A stretch of DNA of 64,000 bases from an uncultured delta proteobacterium. Lineage in GTDB: Bacteria; Myxococcota; Myxococcia; Myxococcales; Anaeromyxobacteraceae. The number at the start of each line of letters is the position of its first letter. Positions within the stretch are counted from its first letter, which is position 1. The notes below the pieces were generated by a model. The model made no database searches and was not told the origin of the DNA. It saw only the letters and a list, made by a program, of their open reading frames with translations. Location of the stretch: the NCBI GenBank assembly GCA_963828255.1, contig CAWHDZ010000017.1, forward strand, positions 145,150 to 209,149. The letters run 5' to 3'. Position numbers and translations under genes: made by a program. Positions 9,297-43,724 of the stretch are shown here, piece after piece.

Positions 9297-10042
9297 CGCG
9301 ACACCCCGCCGATGGTCCGCGGCCCCGGCGCGACGGGCTGGCGCACGCCCGGGTTGGCGACGCCGGGCAGCCGGGTGTTCTGCGCCGGGCTGGCCAGGTT
9401 GGGCGGAATGTCCGGGTCCGGGCCTCGGGCCCCGCCGGCGGCCTTGGGGTGCAGGACCACCCAGAAGGTGGAGAGTTCGAAGCCGTTCTCGGTCTTCCCG
9501 TCCTTCCAGCTCACCCGCAGCGACACCCTGCGGACCCCGTTCTTGATCTCCTCGGTGAAGGCCTTGATCTGCCCCTGCAGGACCCCGCCCAGCAGGCCGC
9601 CCGGCGTGCCCGCCGACGGCCCTCCCTTGGAACCGCCACCGCCACCGCCCTCGCCGCCCAGGAGCTTGCCGAGCATCTCCTGGGTGCCCACGTCTCCGTC
9701 GCCCCCGCCCAGGAACGCGCCCAGGATCTTCTCGGGGGTGAGGTCGGAGGCGGGCTTCTTCAATTCGAGCTTCCAGCGCATGCCGGGCTCACCCTGGTCC
9801 GAGAAGCTGCCCTCCTCGGACTGGTCGAAGTCGGTGAAGCCGGCGTCCTCGTACTTCTCCTCCATCTCGGCCATCTTGCCGCGGGCGAGCAGGGTGGCCA
9901 CGGAGAGGTCGCGCGCGTAGCCGAAGTTCCGCAGCGCGTTGCCCGAGAGGTCGGCCACCGCCATGAGCGAGCCGGCCAGCACGACGAGCGCCACCATGAC
10001 CTCGAGCAGCGTGAAGCCACGCCCCTGCACGACGCGCCTCAC
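9293..10042 (-). CDS. gspI: Type II secretion minor pseudopilin I
   Basis: RGFTLLEVMVAL motif; GTG start overlaps gspH stop. Confidence 0.85.
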   Translation of the reverse strand: MRRVVQGRGFTLLEVMVALVVLAGSLMAVADLSGNALRNFGYARDLSVATLLARGKMAEMEEKYEDAGFTDFDQSEEGSFSDQGEPGMRWKLELKKPASDLTPEKILGAFLGGGDGDVGTQEMLGKLLGGEGGGGGGSKGGPSAGTPGGLLGGVLQGQIKAFTEEIKNGVRRVSLRVSWKDGKTENGFELSTFWVVLHPKAAGGARGPDPDIPPNLASPAQNTRLPGVANPGVRQPVAPGPRTIGGVSR

Positions 10043-18285: not shown

Positions 18286-19707
18286 TCAGGCGCGATCGGG
18301 TGCGCCCGCGTCGTCGGGCTCCGGCTCCACGAGCCGACCTTCTCCGTCCCGGTCGAGCTTGCGGTAGATGGTGCGCGGCGCCACCCGGAGAAGCTGGGCG
18401 GCGAGGTTCTTGTCCCCCCGTGTCTGGCGGAGGGTCTCGCGGATCACGACCCGCTCGATCTCCTCGAGCGGAGTGCCGATGGCGATGGTCAGGGTGCCCG
18501 AGGGGGGAGCGGGGCGCCCCGGCGCGGCGCGGCGCACGGCGTCGGGCAGGTCCTCCAGCTGCACCACGTCGCCCCGGCAGAGGACCACCGCCCGCTCCAT
18601 GGCGTGCTGGAGCTCCCGGACGTTGCCGGGCCAGTCGTGGCCGACGAGCGCCTGGAGCGCCGCGTCGGAGAAGCCGGCCACCGGGCGGCGGTTCCGCTCG
18701 GCGAACCCGCGCAGGAAGGTGGCGGCCAGCAGCGGGACGTCCTCGCGTCTCTCGCGCAGCGGGGGGAGCCTGACCGTCACCACGTCGAGCCGGTAGAAGA
18801 GGTCCTCGCGGAACCGGCCGGCCCGGACCTCGGCGGAGAGGTCGCGGTTGGTGGCCGCGACGATCCGGACGTCCACCTGCACCGGCTGGGTGCCTCCGAG
18901 CCGCTCGACCACGCCGTCCTGGAGCACCCGGAGGAGCTTGGCCTGCACCCCGGGCGACATGTCCCCGACCTCGTCGAGGAAGAGCGTGCCGCCGTGGGCG
19001 CGCTGGAAGCGCCCTTCCTTTCGCTGGATGGCGCCGGTGAAGGCGCCGCGCTCGTAACCGAACAGCTCCGACTCCAGGATGGTCTCCGGGATGGCGGCGC
19101 AGTTCACCGGCACGAAGGGCGCGGCCGACCGGGGCGACAGGTCGTGGAGGAGCCGCGCCGCGAGCTCCTTCCCGGTGCCGCTCTCGCCGAGGAGCAGGAC
19201 GGTGGCCGAGGCCGGCGCGACCTGGCGGAGTGTGTCGAGAGCGGCCCGGAAGGAGGGCGCGCTCCCCACCATTCCCCCGTCGGCGGGCTCGCCGGAGAGG
19301 CGGGCCAGCCGGGCGCGCAGGGACCGGTTCTCGGCCACCAGCGAGGCCCTCTCCAGCGCCAGGCGCACGGACTTCACGATGGCGTGTCGCTTCACCGGCT
19401 TGGTGATGAAGTCGTAGGCCCCGTCCTTCATGGCGGCCACCGCGCCCTCGACCGTGCCGAAGGCGGTCATGAGGACCACCTCGATCTCGGGGGCGATGGC
19501 CTTCAAGGCGCGGAGCAGCTCCCCGCCGCCCATCCCGGGCATCATGAGGTCGGTCACCACCACGTCGGGTCGATCCTGCCGCACCACCTCGAGGGCAGCC
19601 TGGCCCGAGTGGGCGAGCGCGACCCGCCATCCCTCGCGGGAGAAGGTCCGCTCCAGCGATTCCAGGTTGGATCGCTCGTCGTCCACGATGAGGATCAGGG
19701 GCGTCAC
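18286..19707 (-). CDS. Sigma54-dependent NtrC-family response regulator (REC-AAA-HTH)
   Basis: ILIVDDE receiver, GESGTGKE, ESELFG, GAFTGA, WPGNVREL, Fis-type HTH. Confidence 0.96.
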   Translation of the reverse strand: MTPLILIVDDERSNLESLERTFSREGWRVALAHSGQAALEVVRQDRPDVVVTDLMMPGMGGGELLRALKAIAPEIEVVLMTAFGTVEGAVAAMKDGAYDFITKPVKRHAIVKSVRLALERASLVAENRSLRARLARLSGEPADGGMVGSAPSFRAALDTLRQVAPASATVLLLGESGTGKELAARLLHDLSPRSAAPFVPVNCAAIPETILESELFGYERGAFTGAIQRKEGRFQRAHGGTLFLDEVGDMSPGVQAKLLRVLQDGVVERLGGTQPVQVDVRIVAATNRDLSAEVRAGRFREDLFYRLDVVTVRLPPLRERREDVPLLAATFLRGFAERNRRPVAGFSDAALQALVGHDWPGNVRELQHAMERAVVLCRGDVVQLEDLPDAVRRAAPGRPAPPSGTLTIAIGTPLEEIERVVIRETLRQTRGDKNLAAQLLRVAPRTIYRKLDRDGEGRLVEPEPDDAGAPDRA

Positions 19708-19818
19708 GCCGCCGGATCCTACAACGCCTCCCCCGCAATCACCCGTTTGCCATGTCAGAAGCTTGGTGTATGAGACCGGCGGGGCCGGCCCCGAACCAGG
19801 CCGGCGTGGAGGAACGCC

Positions 19819-20691
19819 ATGAAGAGAAGCGCCGTCCTGATCGCCCTCGCGGTCGCCGCCTGCGGACCGTCGGTGAAGTCCGTCTCGGTCGAGCCCGCCC
19901 GGGTGACCCTGGACTCCAAGGGGGCGAGCGTCGAGCTCAAGGCCGTGGCCCGCGACGACAAGGGGCAGGCCATCGACCCCAGCAAGGTCAAGGTCGCCTG
20001 GTCGAGCGCGGCGCCCCAGACCGCCAGCGTCGACGCCGTCGGGGTGCTGGTGGCCCAGCGCTCCGGAGAGACCACCGTGACGGCCTCGGTCGGGGAGGTG
20101 AAGGGAACCGCCCCGGTCGTGGTCTCCATACCGGTCAGCATCAGCGTGTCGGCCGTGTCCAGCGATGCCCGCCCCGGCGACACGGTCCTGCTCAAGGTGA
20201 CCGTGGTGGACGACACCGGCAAGCCGGTCACCGTGCCGCGCACCATCACCTGGACCAGCAGCGACGCCGGCGTGGCCCGCGTGGCCGACGGCAAGGTCGA
20301 GGCGGTCGGGCCGGGGTCGGCGACCATCACAGCCGCAACGGGCGCGCTCAAGGGCGTCGCCACCGTGACGGTGCGCATCCCCGAGTTCGCCAGGCTCTCG
20401 CTCGCGCCGGCCAAGACCCAGACCGTGAAGAAGGGCGACAGGCTGACCTTCAAGGTCGCCGCCCTCGACAAGAAGGGGCAGAAGGTGGGCGGGGTCCCGG
20501 TCGCCTGGAAGTCCTCCGACCCGCGCGTCGCCACGGTCTCCTCCGACGGCGTCGTCACCGCGGCGAAGAAGGGCAGCGCCAGGATCACCGCCTCGTCTTC
20601 CGGGAAGTCGGCGACCGTCGGGGTCACCGTCACCGAGACCGCCTCCAAGTCGAAGGCCAAGGCGAAGCCGCCCGCGAAGAAGAAGAAGTAG
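19819..20691 (+). CDS. Lipoprotein with about three bacterial Ig-like (Big_2) domains and a Lys-rich tail
   Basis: Lipobox AVAAC; repeated WxSSD/A-x-x-VA-x-V...G...G-x-A/T-x-I/V-TA units; GGAGG RBS. Confidence 0.85.
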   Translation: MKRSAVLIALAVAACGPSVKSVSVEPARVTLDSKGASVELKAVARDDKGQAIDPSKVKVAWSSAAPQTASVDAVGVLVAQRSGETTVTASVGEVKGTAPVVVSIPVSISVSAVSSDARPGDTVLLKVTVVDDTGKPVTVPRTITWTSSDAGVARVADGKVEAVGPGSATITAATGALKGVATVTVRIPEFARLSLAPAKTQTVKKGDRLTFKVAALDKKGQKVGGVPVAWKSSDPRVATVSSDGVVTAAKKGSARITASSSGKSATVGVTVTETASKSKAKAKPPAKKKK

Positions 20692-34436: not shown

Positions 34437-36449
34437 TCACTCGCAGAAGGCCGCTCGTCCCACCGGTCGCACCTCGAGGTCGGGCGGCAACTCATCGTAG
34501 GCCAGCACCGCAAGCCCTGGAAATCGCTGCGCGACGAGTTCGCGAAGCGGCCTGCGGACGTCTCCCGGAGCGAGCAGGGCCCGCGCACGCGGCGCCGCCG
34601 CGAGCGCAGATTCCACGGATGCGAGCAGCGCCCGGACGCCGTCCGGTCCGGGCGACCGCGCGCCGCCGTGGATCGCGTCGCGGAAGGTGAGCTCTGCGGC
34701 AGGGTCGAGGAGCAGCGCCTCGAGCGCGCGCCCCCGCAGCAGCGGCTGTGCGATGTGGCGGCAGAGCGACCTCCGACAGGCGTCGCAGAGGGCCGGCGCC
34801 GCCGCCCCGGAAGGCGCCGCGAGCAGGGCCTCCAGGATGGGGCGCAAGGGGCGGATCGAGACCTCCTCCTCGAGGAGCCGTCGCAGCACCTCGGCTATCA
34901 CCACGGGTGAAACATGCCGCGCCACCTCGCGGACCAGCGCCGGGGAGGAGGGCTCGAGCCCGTCGAGCAGGGCCTGCACCTCCTGGACGCCGAGGAGCAG
35001 GTGGGCCGCCCTGCGGAGCGCCGCGTGGGCCTCGGCGAGCGCCCGGTCGCCCGGGTCGAGCACCGGGCCGAGCGCCCCGGCGCGAACCGCGCTCTCCGAC
35101 GCGACGACCGACGCCTCGGCCCCGGTGAGCGGGTGGCGCGCCTGCGCCGCCGGGATCCCGGCCAGTCGAAGCTCGTCCGCCGGCGCCAGGCAGAGCGACC
35201 AGCCGGCCGCCACCTGCCCCTTGGCGGCCGGGGCTCCGTCCACGAGGAGGCGCCAGGCTCCCGGGCCGGAGCGGCCCGCCCGGACGGTGATCCGGCCCGC
35301 CGGAACGCCCATGGAGGTCCAGAGGTCGCGCCGCAGCGCCGCCGCGGCCTCCCCGAGCCAGGCCGAGGTGACCTCCCGGCCGGCCAGGAGGTCGGGGGCG
35401 ATCTCGACCGCGACCGCGTCGGCCGGCGCCAGGTCGCGCGTGCGGCTCCCCTCGACCGCCGGTGCGGCCCCGGCCTCGGGGCCGCGGCGCATGGCCCGGA
35501 TCCCGGTCCACGAGAGCGCCGCGCCGAGGACCAGGAACGGGGCCGCCGGAAACCCCGGCGCGAGCCCCAGGGCGGTGAGGAGTGCGCCGGCGGCGACGAG
35601 CGCGCGCGGTTCCGCCAGGAGCTCGCTCGCGACGCGGGAGGAGACGCTCCGCTCGTCGCCGGCCACCCGGGTGACCGCGATCCCAGCGGCGATGGCGAGG
35701 AGGAGGGAGGGGACCTGCGAGGCCAGGCCGTCCCCGACGGCGAGAAGCAGGTAGCGGCGCGCCGCGGCGCCGGCCGTCATGCCCTTCACGAGGCCGGCCA
35801 CGAGCCCCCCCACCGCGTTCACGAGCGCAATGGCGATGCCCGCCACCGCGTCCCCCTTCACGAACTTGAGCGCGCCGTCCATCGCGCCGTGAAGCTGGCT
35901 CTCCCGCTCCAGCTCCCGGCGTCGCCGGCCGGCCTCGGCGCCGTCGATGGCCCCGGCGCGCAGCTCGGCGTCGATGGCCATCTGCTTGCCGGGCAGGGCG
36001 TCGAGGGTGAAGCGCGCCGCCACCTCGGCCACCCGTTCCGCCCCCCTGGAGACCACGAGGAGCTGGACCAGCGCCAGGATGGCGTAGACCACCGCCCCGG
36101 CCACCCAGCTGCCCTGCATCACCACGCGGCCCAGGGCCTCGATGACCCGGCCGGCCTCGCCCCGGGACAGGACGAGCCGCGTGGAGGCCACCGCCACCGA
36201 GAGCCGCAGGAGCGTGGTGAGCAGGAGGATCGCCGGGAAGGCGGAGAGGCGCATGGCGTCGGGGGCGAGCAGCGTGGCGAGGAGCACGACGGCCGAGATC
36301 CCCAGGCTCGCCGCGACGAGGGCGTCGACCACCGACGGGCCCACCGGCACGAAGAGCAGCCCCACCAGCGCCACCACGGCGAGCCCCGGCGCGAGTTCGG
36401 CCGCCGAGGTGAGCCGGGCCCACCCCCGCCCGGCGTCGCCGGCGCTCAC
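34437..36449 (-). CDS. Type III export gate protein SctV/FlhA family (divergent)
   Basis: FPAILLLTTLLRL, RVAEVAARFTLDALPGKQMAIDAEL, GAMDGALKFVKGD, GDGLASQVP, VLRRLLEEEVSIRPL. Confidence 0.92.
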   Translation of the reverse strand: MSAGDAGRGWARLTSAAELAPGLAVVALVGLLFVPVGPSVVDALVAASLGISAVVLLATLLAPDAMRLSAFPAILLLTTLLRLSVAVASTRLVLSRGEAGRVIEALGRVVMQGSWVAGAVVYAILALVQLLVVSRGAERVAEVAARFTLDALPGKQMAIDAELRAGAIDGAEAGRRRRELERESQLHGAMDGALKFVKGDAVAGIAIALVNAVGGLVAGLVKGMTAGAAARRYLLLAVGDGLASQVPSLLLAIAAGIAVTRVAGDERSVSSRVASELLAEPRALVAAGALLTALGLAPGFPAAPFLVLGAALSWTGIRAMRRGPEAGAAPAVEGSRTRDLAPADAVAVEIAPDLLAGREVTSAWLGEAAAALRRDLWTSMGVPAGRITVRAGRSGPGAWRLLVDGAPAAKGQVAAGWSLCLAPADELRLAGIPAAQARHPLTGAEASVVASESAVRAGALGPVLDPGDRALAEAHAALRRAAHLLLGVQEVQALLDGLEPSSPALVREVARHVSPVVIAEVLRRLLEEEVSIRPLRPILEALLAAPSGAAAPALCDACRRSLCRHIAQPLLRGRALEALLLDPAAELTFRDAIHGGARSPGPDGVRALLASVESALAAAPRARALLAPGDVRRPLRELVAQRFPGLAVLAYDELPPDLEVRPVGRAAFCE

Positions 36450-37480
36450 GTCCGATCTCCGGACTGGAGCCCGTGGACGTGGGCCAGGACCGCCGCCGTG
36501 GCCTCGTAGAGCTCCTCCGGGATGGCCTCCCCGACGTCGGCCAGCCGGAAGAGGGCCCGCGCAAGGGCCCGGTCCTGGACCACCGGGATGCCCATCCGCC
36601 GGGCCTCGCGGCGCAGCGCCACCGCCCGGGCGCCCGAGCCCTTTCCGAGGACCACCGGTGGGTCGTCCCCACCGCGGCGGTGCGCCAGCGCGACGGCGAG
36701 CCGCGTGGGGTTCACCACCAGGCAAGTGGGCCGTCCCGGCGCGCCGGCCAGGGAGGCGTGGAGGCGCCGGCGCTCGGAGCGGTGGCGTGGGTCCCCCTCG
36801 TCCTCGCGCTGGTCGCGCTCCAGCTCCGGCCGGGTCATGCGCAGGCCCCGGAGGTGGCGGCGCCGCCGCAGGAGGAGGTCGGCGAGGCCGGCAGCGGCGA
36901 GGAGCGCCAGGATCGGGGGGAGCGTGGAGCCGACGGCCCAGGCGGCCTCGGCCCATGCCGCCCCGGGACGCATCCGCGGCACCTGCGACAGGAGCGGGAC
37001 CCGGTCGGCGAGGAGCCGCACCCCAAGCGCGACGGCAGACCCGGCGACGAGGAAGGCGAAGGCCGCCTGTCCCGGGCCAGCGGAGGAGAGGAGGCGCCGC
37101 ATCCCCGCGCCCGGATCGACGCGGTCCCAGCGCGGGCGAAGCGCGTCCGGCGCGAGGAGGCCGCCGGTCTGGACCACGCCGGCGATCATGGCCCCCGCGC
37201 AGGCCGCCAGGGCCGGTGGCGCGCAGAGGCGCGCCACCCGCAGGAGTGCGGCCAGCGCGAGCTCCGGCGGGACGGCCTCCGTCCCCGAGACGGCCGCCGA
37301 GAGCGCCGCCCGGAGCGCCGCCGCCTCGTCCGGGACCAGGGAAGGAGAGAGCACCGCGAGGGCGACGAGGCCCAGCGTGGTCGCGCCGAGCCCCACCAGC
37401 GCCCGGCTCACCGGGACCTCGCCTCGCCGGCGGGCCTCCCGGAGCCGGCGGGGAGAGGGAGGAAGGGATCGGCCGCTCAA
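36446..37480 (-). CDS. Export switch protein SctU/FlhB family, NPTR variant
   Basis: PSPRRLREARRRGEVPVS, RMTRPELERDQREDEGDP, VVNPTRLAVAL, IPEELYEATA; TTG start overlaps sctT stop. Confidence 0.9.
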   Translation of the reverse strand: MSGRSLPPSPRRLREARRRGEVPVSRALVGLGATTLGLVALAVLSPSLVPDEAAALRAALSAAVSGTEAVPPELALAALLRVARLCAPPALAACAGAMIAGVVQTGGLLAPDALRPRWDRVDPGAGMRRLLSSAGPGQAAFAFLVAGSAVALGVRLLADRVPLLSQVPRMRPGAAWAEAAWAVGSTLPPILALLAAAGLADLLLRRRRHLRGLRMTRPELERDQREDEGDPRHRSERRRLHASLAGAPGRPTCLVVNPTRLAVALAHRRGGDDPPVVLGKGSGARAVALRREARRMGIPVVQDRALARALFRLADVGEAIPEELYEATAAVLAHVHGLQSGDRT

Positions 37481-38271
37481 GGCGCTCCCCTCGCCATCCG
37501 CTCCACCATGCCCCCGGCGAGCGCGGCCAGCTCCACCAGACGCCCCCCGATGGCGGCCGCGGGAAGGGCCACGGCGGCGAGGCCGAGCGCGGCGCGGACC
37601 GGCGGCGCCGCGTCGAGCAGCGACGAGCGGGGCGCGAGGCGGGAGGAGGCGGAGAGCGCCAGGTCGGCGCAGAGCAGCGCCGCCGCCGCGGGCGCCCCCA
37701 GGCAGAGGGCGGCCGAGAGCAGGTCGGCGGCGGCCGAGGCCGCGGCCTCGAGGCGCAGGAGGCCGGGCAGCGCACCTCCCACCGGCACGGTGCGGAAGGT
37801 GTCGAGCAGCGCCGCCACCAGCAGGCGATCGGCCCCGGCCCAGGCCCCGAGCGCGACCGTCCACTGCGCGAGAAGGTCGCCCACCGCGGTCTCCCGCTGC
37901 CGGATCAGGGGCACGTGGAGTTCACCCAGGGTCGCGCCGCGGAGCGTGTCGACGAGCCGGCCGGCGCCCCGGGCCGCCTCGACCGGGAGGCTCGCCGCGA
38001 AGGCCAGCGCCGCGCCGAGCGCGAGCTCCGATGCCGCCACCGCGAGGAACGGCGCCCCGGGAGGGCTCCCGGCGCCCGTCGCAGACCGCACCGCCGCCCC
38101 GAGCGCGAGGGCCAGCCCGGCCCGGGCCACGGGCGGCAGGAGCGGCCCTCCCAGGAACGGGGAGAGCGCCACCACGGGCAGGAGGCGCAAGGAGCACGCT
38201 CCCACGTCGAGCGCGACACCGGCCACGGCCGGCAGGAGCGCGAGCGCGGCCGGTCCGGCGTCGTCGATCAC
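37477..38271 (-). CDS. Export apparatus protein SctT/FliR family
   Basis: RLLPVVALSPFLG, ELALG, AGRLVDTLRG; hydrophobic; operon position. Confidence 0.85.
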   Translation of the reverse strand: MIDDAGPAALALLPAVAGVALDVGACSLRLLPVVALSPFLGGPLLPPVARAGLALALGAAVRSATGAGSPPGAPFLAVAASELALGAALAFAASLPVEAARGAGRLVDTLRGATLGELHVPLIRQRETAVGDLLAQWTVALGAWAGADRLLVAALLDTFRTVPVGGALPGLLRLEAAASAAADLLSAALCLGAPAAAALLCADLALSASSRLAPRSSLLDAAPPVRAALGLAAVALPAAAIGGRLVELAALAGGMVERMARGAP

Positions 38272-38534
38272 GGCGCCGCCCGGAGCGAGGCCTCGATGCA
38301 GGCCTGGCCGAACCTGACCACCCGCGCGGCGGTCCAGGGCGCGGCGAGCCCGACCACAGTGAGGACGGCCACGAGCCGCGGGACGGCGCCGAGCGCGTGG
38401 TCCTGGATCTGGGTGACGGCCTGCAGCGCCCCGGTGAGGAGGCCTGCCACGAGCGCGGCGGCCAGCGCCGGAGCCGACACGGCCAGCGCGACCAGCAACG
38501 CCTCCCTGCCCGCGACGAGGATGGTCGGGTCCAC
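38268..38534 (-). CDS. Export apparatus protein SctS/FliQ family
   Basis: GLLTGALQAVTQIQDHALGAVPRL, 88 aa. Confidence 0.92.
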   Translation of the reverse strand: MDPTILVAGREALLVALAVSAPALAAALVAGLLTGALQAVTQIQDHALGAVPRLVAVLTVVGLAAPWTAARVVRFGQACIEASLRAAP

Positions 38535-38541
38535 GCGGTCC

Positions 38542-39219
38542 TCAGGGGAGGTAGCCGGAGGCCAGGCCCCGGGTGACGATCCCGAAGCCGTCCACGGCCA
38601 CGACGAGCAGGAGCTTGAAGGGTACGGCCACCGCCGACGGCGAGACCTGGGTGAGGCCGAGCGAGAGGAGCACGCTCGCCACGGCGAGGTCCACGACGAG
38701 GAAGGGGAGGAAGATCAGGAAGCCGACGGTGAAGGCGCGCCGCAGCTCCGAGACCACGAAGGCCGGGGCGAGCACGCCGAAGCCGTCGTCGTCCCCGTCG
38801 GCCCGGGGCGGGGGGGCCCCGCGGGCCCTGGCCGCGAGCAGGGCGAAGGCGCGACGGTCGCCCGGAGCGGCGAAGCGGGCCAGGAAGGCGCGCAGGGGCT
38901 CGGCGGCGCGCGCCCCGGCGGCGAGCGTCTCCTCCGGTCCGCGCGGTGCGGGGGGCTCCTGCCAGCGCGCCCAGGAGGCCGCGGCGACCGGCTGCATGAC
39001 GAGCAGGGTGACGAGCAGTGCCAGCCCGGTGACGGCGGCGTTGGGCGGCACTTGCGGCACCCCCAGCGCCGAGCGCAGGACCGAGAGGACCACCACCACC
39101 TTGAGGAAGCAGGTGAGCGTGACGAGCGCCAGCGGGGCCAGCGCCATGGCGCCGAGGAGGACCAGGAGCTCGAGCGGCCGCTCGCCGGGGAGCACCTGGG
39201 CCAGGGCCGGGGCGATCAC
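38542..39219 (-). CDS. Export apparatus protein SctR/FliP family
   Basis: FLKVVVVLSVLRSALGVPQVPPN, PAFVVSELRRAF, FLPFLVVDL, PFKLLL. Confidence 0.93.
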   Translation of the reverse strand: MIAPALAQVLPGERPLELLVLLGAMALAPLALVTLTCFLKVVVVLSVLRSALGVPQVPPNAAVTGLALLVTLLVMQPVAAASWARWQEPPAPRGPEETLAAGARAAEPLRAFLARFAAPGDRRAFALLAARARGAPPPRADGDDDGFGVLAPAFVVSELRRAFTVGFLIFLPFLVVDLAVASVLLSLGLTQVSPSAVAVPFKLLLVVAVDGFGIVTRGLASGYLP

Positions 39220-39458
39220 GGGGTGCGCTCCATCCGGACGCGGGCGACCAGGCGGACCCCGTCCCGCCCCCACCCGACGAGGAGGACCTCCCCCCGGGCG
39301 CGCACCAGCGCCACGCCCGCGTCCCGGGCGAGCAGCGCCCGGTCCTCGATCTCGAGGTCGCGCGGCGACGGGCGCCGGCCGAGGCGGCGTCGCGCCAGCA
39401 CCGCGCCGGCGGCGAGGAGCGCCACGACGGCCGCTGCGGCCACCGCGGAGGCGGTCAC
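39216..39458 (-). CDS. Small FliO-like membrane protein
   Basis: N-terminal TM then LEIEDRALL...VALVRARGEVLLVGWG beta pattern; lies between FliN-like and FliP-like genes. Confidence 0.65.
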   Translation of the reverse strand: MTASAVAAAAVVALLAAGAVLARRRLGRRPSPRDLEIEDRALLARDAGVALVRARGEVLLVGWGRDGVRLVARVRMERTP

Positions 39459-40696
39459 GGCCCCACCAGGAGCGAGGTGATCCGCACGCCCACCGCGCCG
39501 TCCACCTCGACCAGCTCGCCGCGGGCCACGCCGCGATCGCCGATGCGCAGCGTGACCTGGCCGCTCCGGTCGAGCCCGAGGGGCAGGACCGCCCCGGGAG
39601 CGATCCGGGCCAGGTCCCGGAGCGGCACCGCCACCGAGGCCAGCTCCACCTCGAGCAGCACCGGCGCGCCGCCGGCCCCGCCGGGACCCGGCACGTGCAC
39701 CTCATTCACCTCCAGTGAATCCCCGGCCACCCGCCCACGCGCGGCCAGGCCGCCCGGGAACCGGATCGCAGTGGACTCCCCGGGGGGGCCCTCGAGGAGG
39801 AGCACGTCCCCCTCGCGCAGGGCCTCGACCTCCCCGGGGTCGAGCTCCGTCCGGCCGCTCCGGACCGAGCCCCGGACCAGGACGTCCCGCAGGGGCAGGG
39901 GAACCCCGCCGTCCCGGGGAAGGGTGCGCAGCGCGGCCTCGGGGAGGAACAGGAAGGCGCGCCCCTTCGCTCCCGCCGCGGAAACGGTGAGCTCGATGCA
40001 GACGGGGCGCAGCGGCGCCCCCGCGCGCAGCGCCAGGCGCGGCGCCAGCGGCCCCTCGATCTCCGTCTCGGCGGCGAGTGCGTCGAGCGCGCCCAGGACG
40101 GCGAGCTCCACCACCGCGCGCTCCGCCGCCCCGAGCGACCCGGAAGTCCCGGAGCGCCCGGTCCCGCCCGCCACGCGCCCGGCCAGCCGGGCCGCGAAGC
40201 CGCGGTCCACGGCGAGGGAGGCGACCCCGGCCAGGGCCGTCAGCTCGATGGGGACGAGCGCGGCCCCTGCCGGCTCGGGGAGCCCGGGGAGGATGCGCCC
40301 GTGCAAGCTGGCCTCGCCGCCCAGCACGGAGGAGAGCCCGCGGGCGGCGGCGCGGGCGGCGCGCTCGCCCAGGTCGAGGAGCGAGGCGTCCAGCAGGGCG
40401 AGCGCCGGCGCGACGGGGGGGAGGTCGAAGGGGAGCACGTCTCCCGGCTCGAGCACGTGCCATGCCGGGGCCCCCTCGGCCCCGTCCCTCGCTCCGCACG
40501 TCCCGGGCCCGTCCGCTTCGCGCTCCGGCGGCCGAAGCGCGGACGCGAGCGCCGCCAGCCGGTCGGCGCGTGGTGCGGCGAGGAGCGCGCGGATCCTCTC
40601 CGGATCGACCCCGGGATGGCGTCCCAGGAGCGCCGCGGCCCGCGCAGGTGCGAGCGCGGCGGCGAGCACGACGAGCCCCCGGGCATCGGGGTTCAC
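39455..40696 (-). CDS. C-ring protein SctQ/FliM-FliN family (two SPOA domains)
   Basis: LREGDVLLL and VPLRDLARIAPGAVLPL...ARGELVEVDGAVGVRI SPOA motifs. Confidence 0.82.
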   Translation of the reverse strand: MNPDARGLVVLAAALAPARAAALLGRHPGVDPERIRALLAAPRADRLAALASALRPPEREADGPGTCGARDGAEGAPAWHVLEPGDVLPFDLPPVAPALALLDASLLDLGERAARAAARGLSSVLGGEASLHGRILPGLPEPAGAALVPIELTALAGVASLAVDRGFAARLAGRVAGGTGRSGTSGSLGAAERAVVELAVLGALDALAAETEIEGPLAPRLALRAGAPLRPVCIELTVSAAGAKGRAFLFLPEAALRTLPRDGGVPLPLRDVLVRGSVRSGRTELDPGEVEALREGDVLLLEGPPGESTAIRFPGGLAARGRVAGDSLEVNEVHVPGPGGAGGAPVLLEVELASVAVPLRDLARIAPGAVLPLGLDRSGQVTLRIGDRGVARGELVEVDGAVGVRITSLLVGP

Positions 40697-41412
40697 GGTC
40701 CGTCCGTCCTGCGCCGCCCCAGCACCAGGGCGAAGGCGCCCAGCACCGCCGCGAACGCGAGCATGGAGCCGGCCAGCCAGCCTCGCGAGACCCTCGGCTC
40801 CGCAGTCCGGGGAGCGGGGGAAGGCGCCGCCTCGCTCACCAGCACCGACACCGACGCAGGGTCGAGCCCCTCCGCCGCGCCGGCCACCATGCGGCGAAGC
40901 CCGTCGGACTGGGATTCCAGCCTTCCGCGCGCGTCGGGGCGGCACTTCACCAGGATCGATGCGCGCGGCGTCCGGCGCGCGTCCGGGCGGAGCGGGTCGG
41001 GAGGCGGCAGGGCCAGGTGGACGCGCGCCCCCAGGACGCCGTCGAGCGACTCGAGCGTCCGGGCCAGCTCGCCGGAGAGCGCGTGCAGGTACCGGGCCTG
41101 CTCCTCGAAGGGGGTGGGGACGAGACCGACGCTCCCGAAGAGCTCCGTGAAGCCCGGCGACCGCGGGCGCGGAAGGTCTCGCGCCGAGAGGACGCTGCGC
41201 GCCGCCGCCGCCTCGGACGGGCGCACCGCGACGGTGAAGGTCCCTTCCTCTCCCCCGTCCCGCTCCTTCCGTGCCGGGAGCCCGGCCTCGCCGAGTGCGA
41301 CGAGGACCTGGTTCGCCTGTGGCTCGTCGAGCCGGTGCAGGAGCACCTCGTCGCCGCAGGCGGCCAGGACGGGGAGCAGCGCGAGCGGCAGGAAGGGGCG
41401 GGGCACGGTCAC
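40693..41412 (-). CDS. Inner membrane ring lipoprotein SctJ (YscJ/PrgK family)
   Basis: Lipobox LAAC, LDEPQANQVL, GLVPTPFEEQARY, LESLDGVLGARVHL, C-terminal TM. Confidence 0.92.
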   Translation of the reverse strand: MTVPRPFLPLALLPVLAACGDEVLLHRLDEPQANQVLVALGEAGLPARKERDGGEEGTFTVAVRPSEAAAARSVLSARDLPRPRSPGFTELFGSVGLVPTPFEEQARYLHALSGELARTLESLDGVLGARVHLALPPPDPLRPDARRTPRASILVKCRPDARGRLESQSDGLRRMVAGAAEGLDPASVSVLVSEAAPSPAPRTAEPRVSRGWLAGSMLAFAAVLGAFALVLGRRRTDGP

Positions 41413-41792
41413 ACCTGGGCGTTCAGCGCCTGGCGCATCCCCTGGACTCCGTGCTCGACGGCCCGGGCGGCGAACTCGACCGTCTGTGCGAAGCGGTGCG
41501 CGTCGGCCTGGAGGCAGAGCAGTTCCTGGGGGCTGAAGGTGCGCCCGCGGCGGGCCTCCGAAAGCATCCCGTCGAGCCGGGCCCGGACCCCCTCGATGTC
41601 GCGCAGCGCCCCCGGCAGCGCCGGCGCGGGGGACGCCTCCTGGGCGGCGCGGGACGGGCCGGGCGCGGGAGCGCCTGCCGCGGGGATCGACGGGCCGGGC
41701 TCGAACATGCGCCGGAGCACGGCCACGGGAGGCCGGACCGCGGCCGGCGGCGCGGTGAGGTCCACGACGCGGATGGGGGCGGGGGAGTTCAC
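41409..41792 (-). CDS. Putative inner rod protein (SctI-like C-terminus)
   Basis: C-terminal SPQELLCLQ...VEFAARAVEHGVQGMRQALNAQV resembles the YscI/HrpB2 end; sits directly upstream of sctJ. Confidence 0.55.
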   Translation of the reverse strand: MNSPAPIRVVDLTAPPAAVRPPVAVLRRMFEPGPSIPAAGAPAPGPSRAAQEASPAPALPGALRDIEGVRARLDGMLSEARRGRTFSPQELLCLQADAHRFAQTVEFAARAVEHGVQGMRQALNAQV

Positions 41793-42247
41793 TGGACGTT
41801 CTGGATGGCGGCGCGTGCGGCGTCGTGACGGACCTTCATGATGTTGGACACCGCAGTGAACTCCCGGGTCTCCCGCTGCATCCTTTCCTGAAGCTCGAGG
41901 TAGCGGAGGTTGAAGCTCTGCCCCTCCGCCTGGAGCGCCCGCGCGGCCTCGAACCCGTCGGCTCCGCCCGCCGACGCCGAGGCGAGCGTGGTCGCCCCGG
42001 ACAGCCCGGACGTTCCGGACGTTCCGGACGAGGCCGGGCGCGCCGCCCCGGCGGCGGCCTGTGCCACGCCGCGGACCGCGCCGGCGAGCACCATCCCGGC
42101 GGGGGCGAGGGGGGCGAGGATTCCCGCCGCGGCGGCCAGCCCCTCCGCGGCGCCGGCGGCGGCCGCGCGCAGCGTGGCTCCGAAGGAGGAAGGGGCGGTC
42201 TTGCGATCCGCGGTGGGTGCGACGATGACCGAGGTGATGGGTTCCAT
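41789..42247 (-). CDS. Putative needle/filament subunit (SctF-like C-terminus)
   Basis: C-terminal LELQERMQ...AVSNIMKVRHDAARAAIQNVQ resembles PrgI AQSNTVKVFKDIDAAIIQNFR; GGAGG RBS. Confidence 0.55.
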   Translation of the reverse strand: MEPITSVIVAPTADRKTAPSSFGATLRAAAAGAAEGLAAAAGILAPLAPAGMVLAGAVRGVAQAAAGAARPASSGTSGTSGLSGATTLASASAGGADGFEAARALQAEGQSFNLRYLELQERMQRETREFTAVSNIMKVRHDAARAAIQNVQ

Positions 42248-42274: not shown

Positions 42275-42290
42275 AGCACGCGACGTGCCG
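42275..42290 (-). promoter_or_regulatory. Putative sigma54 promoter of the T3SS-like operon
   Basis: Minus strand CGGCACGTCGCGTGCT has GG-N10-GC with a GGCAC core, about 28 nt before the first ATG. Confidence 0.55.
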
Positions 42291-42383: not shown

Positions 42384-43724
42384 GTGAGCCGGGAACACCT
42401 CCGCAAGCTGTCCGATGAGCTCATCGCGGTGCAGCGCCCCATCCGCATCCTGAAGGCCATCAACTGGGGTCCGCGCGTCCACGCGCAGTTCTTCAGGACC
42501 GGCTGCCGGGAGCTTCCCCGCCCCGAGTACGCCCCGCTCGGCTTCGACGTGAAGGAGAAGCTCCGGGAGCTCCGCGACCTCCGCCGCCAGATCCGCGGAA
42601 GGAACCCGGTGGAGGAGCTCCTGCGCGAGAAGTGCGACGAGTTCTCGCTCGTCGCCGGGATGCTCGACGCCCGCGGCACGCGCCGGTTCTACGAGCTCTC
42701 CCGCCAGATCTTCGGCGACCCGCGCGACCGCTTCCCCGACGTGAGCGCCGACAACCTGGCCATCGCGCGGCTCTGGGCCTCGCGCCCCCGCGCCCGCGAC
42801 GAGGAGCAGTCGCTCTCGGCCCTGAAGGCGGCGCGGCTCGTCCACGCGATCTGCGACCCGCTGCTGGGCGGCCAGGTGAAGGTGGCGGTCCACTCCCGCC
42901 TCACCGCCAACGCCGCCGCTGGCGCGACCCGCATCACGCTCAAGAAGGGGGCGCGCTTCTCGCCGCGCCAGGTCCGCGCGCTGGCCCACCACGAGGGGCT
43001 CTGGCACGTGCTCACCTCGCTGAACGGCTTCCGCCAGCCGGTGTTGACCGTCCTCGGAGTCGGGCTGGCCCGCCACACCGAGTCGCAGGAGGGGGGCGGC
43101 ATCGTCGCCGAGTACCTCACCGGAAACATCACCGACGAGCGCTACATCGAGCTGGGCGAGCGCACCATCGCCATCGACATGGCCGCGCGCGGCGCCGACT
43201 TCCTGGAGGTCTACCGCTACCTGCTGGCCCGCTTCACCCCGCCCCGATCGGCCCAGATGGCGGAGCGGGTCTTCCGGGGCGGCGTGGTGGAGGGGGGCGC
43301 CCCCTTCACCAAGGACGCCGCCTACCAGCGCGGCTACTGCCGGACCTTCAACTTCCTGCGGGCCGCGCTCGAGCAGCGCGACCTCGATCTGGTGCGGGCG
43401 TTCCTCTCCGGAAAGATGAGCGTGGACCACGCCGCGGTGGTGCGCGGGCTCACCGAGGAGGGGCTCGTGACCGGGCCGGTCTACCTGCCCGAGTGGTTCA
43501 TCGACGTGGACCGGCTGAACGCCATCGCCACCCACTCGGTGACCATGAACCGCTTCAGCCTCCCCAAGGTGAGCCGCTACTACGAGCGGCGGCGCGCCGG
43601 CGAGGCCGCGCGGAACGCCCGGACGGCCCGGGGCTCCCGGCGGTCGAGCGTGGACTCCCCGGTGGACGAGGAGTTCCCGGTCCGCGACCCAACCGGCAGC
43701 GACGAGGGGGACGGCAACGAGTAG
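42384..43724 (+). CDS. DUF1704 / QEGLA-motif family metallopeptidase (Tyr/Phe carboxypeptidase-like)
   Basis: HHEGLWHVLTSLNG (HExxxH), SQEGGG, RVFRGG...PFTKDAAY. Confidence 0.82.
   Translation: MSREHLRKLSDELIAVQRPIRILKAINWGPRVHAQFFRTGCRELPRPEYAPLGFDVKEKLRELRDLRRQIRGRNPVEELLREKCDEFSLVAGMLDARGTRRFYELSRQIFGDPRDRFPDVSADNLAIARLWASRPRARDEEQSLSALKAARLVHAICDPLLGGQVKVAVHSRLTANAAAGATRITLKKGARFSPRQVRALAHHEGLWHVLTSLNGFRQPVLTVLGVGLARHTESQEGGGIVAEYLTGNITDERYIELGERTIAIDMAARGADFLEVYRYLLARFTPPRSAQMAERVFRGGVVEGGAPFTKDAAYQRGYCRTFNFLRAALEQRDLDLVRAFLSGKMSVDHAAVVRGLTEEGLVTGPVYLPEWFIDVDRLNAIATHSVTMNRFSLPKVSRYYERRRAGEAARNARTARGSRRSSVDSPVDEEFPVRDPTGSDEGDGNE

Follow-up and report, generated by a model that had tools for sequence, protein, structure and literature searches.

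The 152-aa protein P0001, encoded by the first gene of a T3SS (type III secretion system) operon in a member of the Myxococcota, ends in a long helix which, judging from its sequence, very probably descends from the needle subunit SctF. Related genes head T3SS loci in systems that have been described as needleless, and an SctF-like subunit in such systems is apparently unreported.

Locus and operon

The window is the whole stretch of DNA that was analysed (64,000 nucleotides), and positions refer to it unless another contig or locus is named. Both ORFs to which the earlier note had drawn attention, with their coordinates and ends, proved to be real and lie on the minus strand. Homologues carry the label Anaeromyxobacteraceae. 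The operon and its surroundings contain the following features:

42275..42289, minus: conserved site resembling a sigma-54 promoter of the -24/-12 type, some 30-40 bases 5' of the P0001 start codon
41789..42247, minus: P0001, SctF-like gene, 152 aa, ATG start; heads the short Myxo T3SS operon
42044..42187, minus: P0001 residues 21-68, predicted pair of helices rich in Ala/Gly, including a stretch of moderate hydrophobicity
41792..41962, minus: P0001 residues 96-152, SctF-like conserved C-terminal helix, predicted as a single 57-residue helix with no PxxP turn
41409..41792, minus: P0002, sctI inner-rod gene, 127 aa, GTG start
40693..41412, minus: sctJ, inner-membrane ring lipoprotein (PF01514, E 1e-27)
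39455..40696, minus: sctQ-like C-ring gene, 413 aa if read from the GTG that overlaps the stop of sctJ, with an uncertain start (PF01052)
39216..39458, minus: fliO-like gene, 80 aa (PF04347, E 2.6e-4, just under the cut-off)
38542..39219, minus: sctR (FliP family), start approximate
38268..38534, minus: sctS (PF01313)
37477..38271, minus: sctT (PF01311)
36446..37480, minus: sctU, start approximate; cleavage motif NPTR, not NPTH
34437..36506, minus: sctV export gate, start approximate; the sole FHIPEP-family gene found in the genome

A ribosome site (GGAGG) is located just 5' of the P0001 ATG, the ORFs of P0001 and P0002 overlap by 4 bases, and sctJ comes after P0002. Of 77 loci, 35 have the sigma-54-type site, a putative promoter, in their upstream region, and these are mainly Anaeromyxobacteraceae-like; it occurs in 0 of 364 control windows. 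The pattern used was derived from the same loci in which it was counted. A divergent MATCAP-family (PF08014) metallopeptidase gene is found directly upstream of the operon (42384-43724, plus strand).

The locus is the one that Abby and Rocha describe as the 'short' Myxo T3SS in the available text of PMC3459982. It has the same gene set as T3SS(2), MXAN_5643-5654, namely sctI, J, Q, a fliO-like gene, R, S, T, U and V, and no secretin. Within the locus no secretin (SctC) gene was found; the source genome (99.2% complete, one SctV-family gene) has two secretins, both elsewhere, one of them within this window in a cluster that resembles type II secretion genes. The sctN and sctL-like genes are located on a separate contig (L009:9616-12468, G000:C11), downstream of rpoC, where they follow a gene of the sigma-70 family. 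The autocleavage motif of SctU, NPTR here, reads NPTH in the short locus of genome G110 and NPDH in the long locus of that genome.

Inner-rod protein P0002

P0002 is an SctI inner-rod protein and an ordinary member of its family, apart from a longer low-complexity N-terminal half. In HHalign, the 41-member P0002 family matches nine annotated SctI proteins with 90.6% (E 1.3e-6, 66 columns), as opposed to 6.2% for six SctF proteins. Family members match PF17001 (18/41, best 6.3e-5) and NF038054 (14/41), and P0002 alone gives no match. Its AlphaFold2 model contains a helical hairpin (residues 59-81 and 88-126), with a pLDDT below 50 at residues 21-53. With Foldseek, the best natural rows are rod or export-gate structures (E 0.65-1.2), and a VIA alignment to 8axk_Q (Z 7.9, rmsd 3.9, 72 aligned) is level with that of unrelated hairpins. 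The gene position directly 5' of sctJ is common to P0002 and the SctI/FliE proteins (PrgJ, MxiI, YscI; PF17001, NF038054), and the predicted hairpin may be as well. Since the available text of PMC3459982 already gives this Myxo locus an inner rod, this part is not new, and the rod gene contributes nothing further to the present finding.

Similarity of the P0001 C-terminus to SctF

For P0001, the 44-member family was compared by HHalign to six SctF proteins, resulting in a probability of 91.3% (E 9e-7, 56 columns), compared to 0.1% against SctI. Together with the values for P0002 and the conserved gene order, this bears out the claim of the earlier note that the C-termini of the two proteins resemble SctF and SctI, respectively. 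When the last 60 aa of 31 members, picked without any needle model or SctF reference, were used instead, the match to SctF was 91.8% with a score of 35.6. Three sets of 150 shuffled controls reached at most 15.4, 21.5 and 27.1 (at most 21.5 when the heptads were preserved), and the reversed control 7.0. In a panel of 57 annotated proteins exported by T3SS or flagellar systems, the top five places all go to SctF (scores 24.8-17.2), and the best non-SctF protein scores 15.7, with FlgK and IpaB at 14.2, EspA at 12.4, IpaC at 12.2 and FliC at 11.5. These are five of the seven SctF proteins in the panel; YscF (12.0) and AscF (12.8) score no better than the non-needles. The last 45-56 or so residues of SctF (MxiH, PrgI, YscF, EscF; PF09392, TIGR02105) align ungapped to the C-terminus with the P0001 family. 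Over the final 40 residues, P0001 is identical to MxiH at 13/40 positions, ungapped, and to five other SctF proteins at 6-11/40.

A blind scan of 24,736 Pfam families gave the needle family PF09392 as the most frequent match (8/44 full-length members, 10/31 C-termini, best E 4.9e-4). On the C-termini, however, Arg_decarb_HB is about as strong (9/31, 5.8e-4). The HrpA pilin of NCBIfam matches 9 of the 44 family members (best 2e-5). Named look-alikes in the ESM Atlas are needle_F clusters (11% and 10% of members) and HrpA and HrpE clusters, with scores of 0.89-0.79; as all are below 0.9, they are leads only. At the curated cut-offs of PF09392 and TIGR02105, P0001 has no match and the listed family hits fall below the cut-off. 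Neither P0001 nor P0002 gives a Pfam match when searched singly, and nothing in the source genome matches PF09392 at E≤0.05. Across 301 Myxococcota genomes, PF09392 has weak matches in 87 and matches above the cut-off in four, the source genome not being among these four; two of them (L080, L081) are distant P0001-family members. Against PDB sequences, the unbiased C-terminal profile finds no needle chain at E≤10, its match being V-ATPase subunit D at E 0.1, and the full-length family profiles find no needle either. A needle-only PDB list and a Pfam count of 18/39 were discarded as circular, 8 of the 39 alignment rows having been chosen by PF09392.

Two other identities were considered for P0001 and rejected. 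It has no similarity to the translocator and tip proteins IpaB/C/D, EspA/B/D or SctB/E (compared as single sequences, which scored below SctF), and no translocator or tip Pfam family occurs among the P0001-family hits. The flagellar axial proteins (FliC, FlgL, FlgB-G, FlgK, FliE) score at most 14.2, and the sole FHIPEP gene of the genome is in this locus.

The pilins HrpA and HrpE (PF09589, NF053530) deserve a separate comparison. Besides the weak matches mentioned above (with Atlas scores of 0.81 and 0.80), their gene, like that of P0001, comes first, ahead of the rod gene and sctJ. In HrpA/HrpE, too, the C-terminus is conserved and the N-terminal part variable. However, single HrpA-type sequences score at most 15.5 against the P0001 family, under five SctF proteins, and Hrp systems have a secretin.

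Anatomy and predicted structure of P0001

The C-termini are the best-conserved portions of both the P0001 and the P0002 families. In the P0001 family, the top-residue frequency is 0.68 over residues 113-152, versus 0.25 in the linker (residues 66-95). According to the earlier note, P0001 has a long Ala/Gly-rich N-terminal part. The composition agrees with this, with 46% Ala+Gly in residues 1-95, but the sequence is not of low complexity throughout: residues 13-65 or so form a conserved motif and a predicted two-helix hydrophobic element (helices 21-44 and 51-68), and the variable Gly/Ser/Ala linker is confined to about 66-95. Hydropathy over 19 residues is 1.91 at residues 37-55. The hydrophobic N-terminal part weakly matches Hbl L1 (PDB, E 0.016) and NheB (NCBIfam, 1/44 members).

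AlphaFold2 models P0001 with one straight helix at residues 95-151 (pLDDT 93-96; pTM 0.35), in which the SctF-type helix-turn-helix with its PxxP turn is absent. A PxxP turn is also missing in 110 of 115 family members, proline occupying the turn position in the other 5; the member in L107 retains an NPSP turn at the position of the MxiH loop. Foldseek gave no match for the P0001 model and VIA-align returned generic coiled coils (Z about 6), a single long helix being an uninformative query. The earlier note had named two traits whose absence would speak against both assignments, a C-terminus conserved among homologues and a helical hairpin. The former was found for both proteins; the latter is predicted for the rod protein and not for the needle-like one.

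Compared to SctF, the P0001 family is thus different in several respects: a length of 130-200 aa versus 70-90 aa, no PxxP turn, a predicted straight helix, scores below the cut-offs and no secretin in the locus. Its extras are the conserved N-terminal motif, the hydrophobic hairpin and the Gly/Ser linker. In the 115-member alignment, from which longer matches were left out, lengths range from 129 to 188 aa, and P0001 itself, at 152 aa, exceeds the needle size of 70-90 aa. Because it departs from SctF in size, in the turn and at the cut-offs, P0001 is not filed as a canonical SctF.

Distribution and gene order

A profile search found the P0001 family in 251 and the SctI family in 249 of the 301 Myxococcota genomes, a tally that includes the unpublished genome G181 and in which kin are not independent. 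Both families are absent from the same seven GTDB families (f3, f5, f6, f7, f9, f17 and f22). In a set of 1.84 billion representatives, 2,955 match the P0001-family profile at E≤0.001, the best 150 of which were viewed. Myxo T3SS markers occur in most sampled Myxococcota families (f10-f35), well outside Cystobacterineae and including genomes smaller than 2 Mb; reviews give a narrower range.

In the 80 loci retained from 469, the gene following the P0001-family gene is sctI in 69 cases (68 with sctJ in view) and a TPR gene in 8 (6 with sctI in view), the remaining 3 ending at a contig edge. The order needle-rod-sctJ, which the earlier note had called classic, is therefore found here and, as far as sctI directly downstream is concerned, in 69/80 loci. 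The order sctF-(TPR chaperone)-sctI-sctJ is common to P0001-family loci and those of Shigella, Yersinia, Aeromonas and Nitratidesulfovibrio. All five complete genomes (5/5) have two SctV loci, both of them preceded by one P0001-family copy. The long locus begins with the P0001-family gene and a TPR gene, after which about 1.1 kb separate the latter from sctI and sctJ, an arrangement that parallels yscF-yscG-yscH-yscI-yscJ. Based on gene content and order, the long locus appears to correspond to the predation system T3SS*, MXAN_2434-2464; both loci were provisionally matched to MXAN tags by gene order. On this basis its first gene is probably mxan_2434, which would be untouched in the published deletion of mxan_2438-2451. 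A separate 94-aa gene after sctU in a long locus (L053:4599-4883) resembles, by eye, a C-terminal fragment of SctU.

The TPR proteins adjoining P0001-family genes match the LcrH/SycD translocator chaperones best in 18/18 cases (4e-14; CdsG 1.6e-8), though every score is far under its curated cut-off and about equalled by generic TPR models. The predicted complex of a long-locus P0001-family protein with its adjoining TPR protein has a score of 0.18, against a mark of 0.32, and counts neither for nor against an interaction.

Transcription

Transcription was examined in one stranded RNA run of an M. xanthus-like strain (condition not known), which matches both loci at mostly 95-99% and was read in 667-base bins, with reads cut at duplicated genes. 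The short locus is at background, flat and equal on both strands. In the long locus, bin depths are 551 for the P0001-family gene, 234 for the TPR gene, 255 for sctI and about 50 for the export-gate genes, with a background of about 25-35. The long-locus P0001-family copy is therefore among the most transcribed genes of its locus in this one run, in which lying at the 5' end can by itself lift the depth of a first gene. By far the highest depth in the long locus, 2,335, belongs to an uncharacterised 193-aa gene after a TPR chaperone gene (L232:15974-16555), which has no Pfam match and is a candidate for a major T3SS* substrate.

Other proteins sharing the helix

P0001 is the only SctF-like gene within the T3SS locus of the source genome, in which no needle-like gene of about 71 aa was found. 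A 306-aa paralogue is encoded elsewhere in this genome (G000:C21:137484-138413; L050:9482-10402, minus) and combines a long hydrophobic segment with the same SctF-like helix. It has no Pfam match and is directly followed by a TPR gene (L050:9026-9472), far from T3SS genes, so that the two have the appearance of an orphan pair of substrate and chaperone. Two matches are likewise seen in strains of the same genus.

The best 30 PF09392 loci comprise P0001-family members, hydrophobic proteins of 230-530 aa, ORFs of 71-74 aa and one off-frame match. The proteins of 230-530 aa are Gly/Met-rich and partly hydrophobic, with an SctF-like end helix (L079, L082-L086, L088, L090, L091, L093, L094 and L100). 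In systems that reportedly have no translocon, they might be subunits of a translocon or tip type. The small ORFs are located as follows:

L053:7252-7476 and 9667-9891; L232:17229-17453 and 19644-19868; also L092, L097, L104, L106 and L115-L144: ORFs of 71-74 aa

They occur near the long-locus sctV of Myxococcaceae-type genomes in 2-6 near-identical tandem copies, in some genomes antisense to the operon. Their match to SctF spans 67 columns with 64.9%, four of the five seeds having been chosen by a needle HMM, and in the RNA run the 74-aa ORFs of the long locus are at background. They are rival needle candidates for T3SS*. Since the same helix is found on several other Myxococcota proteins, the helix alone does not pick out the major needle subunit.

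Possible role of P0001

The C-terminal match to SctF over about 56 residues, together with the position of the gene at the place of sctF, makes it likely that P0001 is a needle-type axial subunit. A conserved divergent needle relative at the head of the cluster suggests that the machine makes a short filament of the needle kind. The reading that we lean towards is that P0001 forms such a filament on the SctI rod. Filament building, which the earlier note had suggested, is plausible; an external PrgI-type needle is not claimed, because of the missing PxxP turn, structural match and locus secretin. P0001 would be exported via SctRSTUV, powered by SctN, and would stack on the SctI rod, polymerising by its C-terminal helix as SctF and HrpA do. 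Outside the filament core, P0001 might carry its variable linker together with the hydrophobic hairpin of its N-terminal part. As the system has no secretin of its own, the filament might be periplasmic, it might reach the surface via a borrowed channel, or the hairpin might engage a membrane.

Another possibility, which we consider rather doubtful, might be that P0001 descends from SctF and makes no long polymer. A few copies would then form an adapter on top of the SctI rod, or would function like a tip or translocator protein with the hairpin in a membrane, while the 71-74 aa genes of the long locus would be the true major needle. The straight predicted helix without a PxxP turn is in line with such a role, as is the hydrophobic hairpin, with its weak Hbl L1 and NheB matches and a 19-residue hydropathy of at least 1.6 in 23 of 44 family members. 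The small ORFs are indeed needle-sized, with their 67 columns to SctF and tandem copies, and the adjoining TPR proteins resemble translocator chaperones in all 18 cases. However, these TPR matches, as stated above, lie far under the curated cut-offs and at a level that generic TPR models also reach, and in single-sequence comparisons the tail of P0001 has no similarity to IpaC, IpaD, EspA/B/D or SctB/E. Synteny also places P0001 at the sctF position in a genome without a 71-aa gene, and in the RNA run the 74-aa ORFs are at background and the P0001-family gene is high, although this is one run with coarse bins and reads cut at duplicates.

It is improbable that the resemblance to SctF arose by convergence, the C-terminal helix then being an amphipathic export or chaperone-binding element common to several type III substrates, on a secreted protein of the effector kind that does not descend from needle subunits. 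The sub-threshold family scores and a false family of equal strength (Arg_decarb_HB) would fit such an origin, and so would the lack of an unbiased PDB sequence match and the presence of the helix on proteins of many lengths. The heptad-preserving shuffles, on the other hand, stay far under the score of the real C-termini, and SctF alone tops the panel of 57 proteins. The fixed gene position, the phylum-wide co-occurrence with sctI and a C-terminal conservation far higher than expected for an effector also argue against convergence. That the locus is a decaying relic with a functionless gene is very improbable: one run shows the short locus at background, SctU has NPTR for NPTH and the loci were earlier called degenerate, but the frames are intact, residues are invariant across 251/301 genomes, the promoter-like site is conserved and the long-locus copy is strongly transcribed.

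Relation to published work and significance

According to the available text of PMC3459982, the Myxo systems, the earliest-branching ones, lost SctF. T3SS* is likewise described as having no needle homologue in the available parts of PMC12075869, PMC10433427, PMC12428579 and PMC10849154, and in the first of these the tips of Tad pili are proposed as a stand-in for the T3SS* needle, starting from that premise. In contrast to these descriptions, an SctF-like gene heads both loci here. Both clusters are named in the available text of PMC10196010, which states, citing Thiery 2022, that T3SS(2) is not needed for predation or killing; there and in the consulted part of PMC3459982, the Myxo loci are termed degenerate by earlier authors. 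The literature searched, which lay largely outside subscription journals, yielded no earlier description of these loci as containing an SctF homologue.

More speculatively, the Myxococcota systems may never have lost SctF and may have diversified an SctF-tailed family instead. Within it, the P0001 family, whose flexible linker would bear a hairpin that seeks membranes, would form a secretin-independent filament, which in T3SS* would be the missing conduit for lytic effectors into bacterial prey, the multi-copy 71-74 aa relatives and the longer hydrophobic ones serving as alternative shaft or tip.

A conserved SctF homologue would support the predicted ancestral 'periplasmic needle without secretin', a periplasmic SctF structure which Abby and Rocha proposed for the ancestor (available text of PMC3459982). 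An SctF homologue heading both loci would also remove the no-needle premise of the work on T3SS* in Myxococcus predation. The access of T3SS* to prey would thereby become a question for single-gene tests in a harmless and genetically tractable organism.
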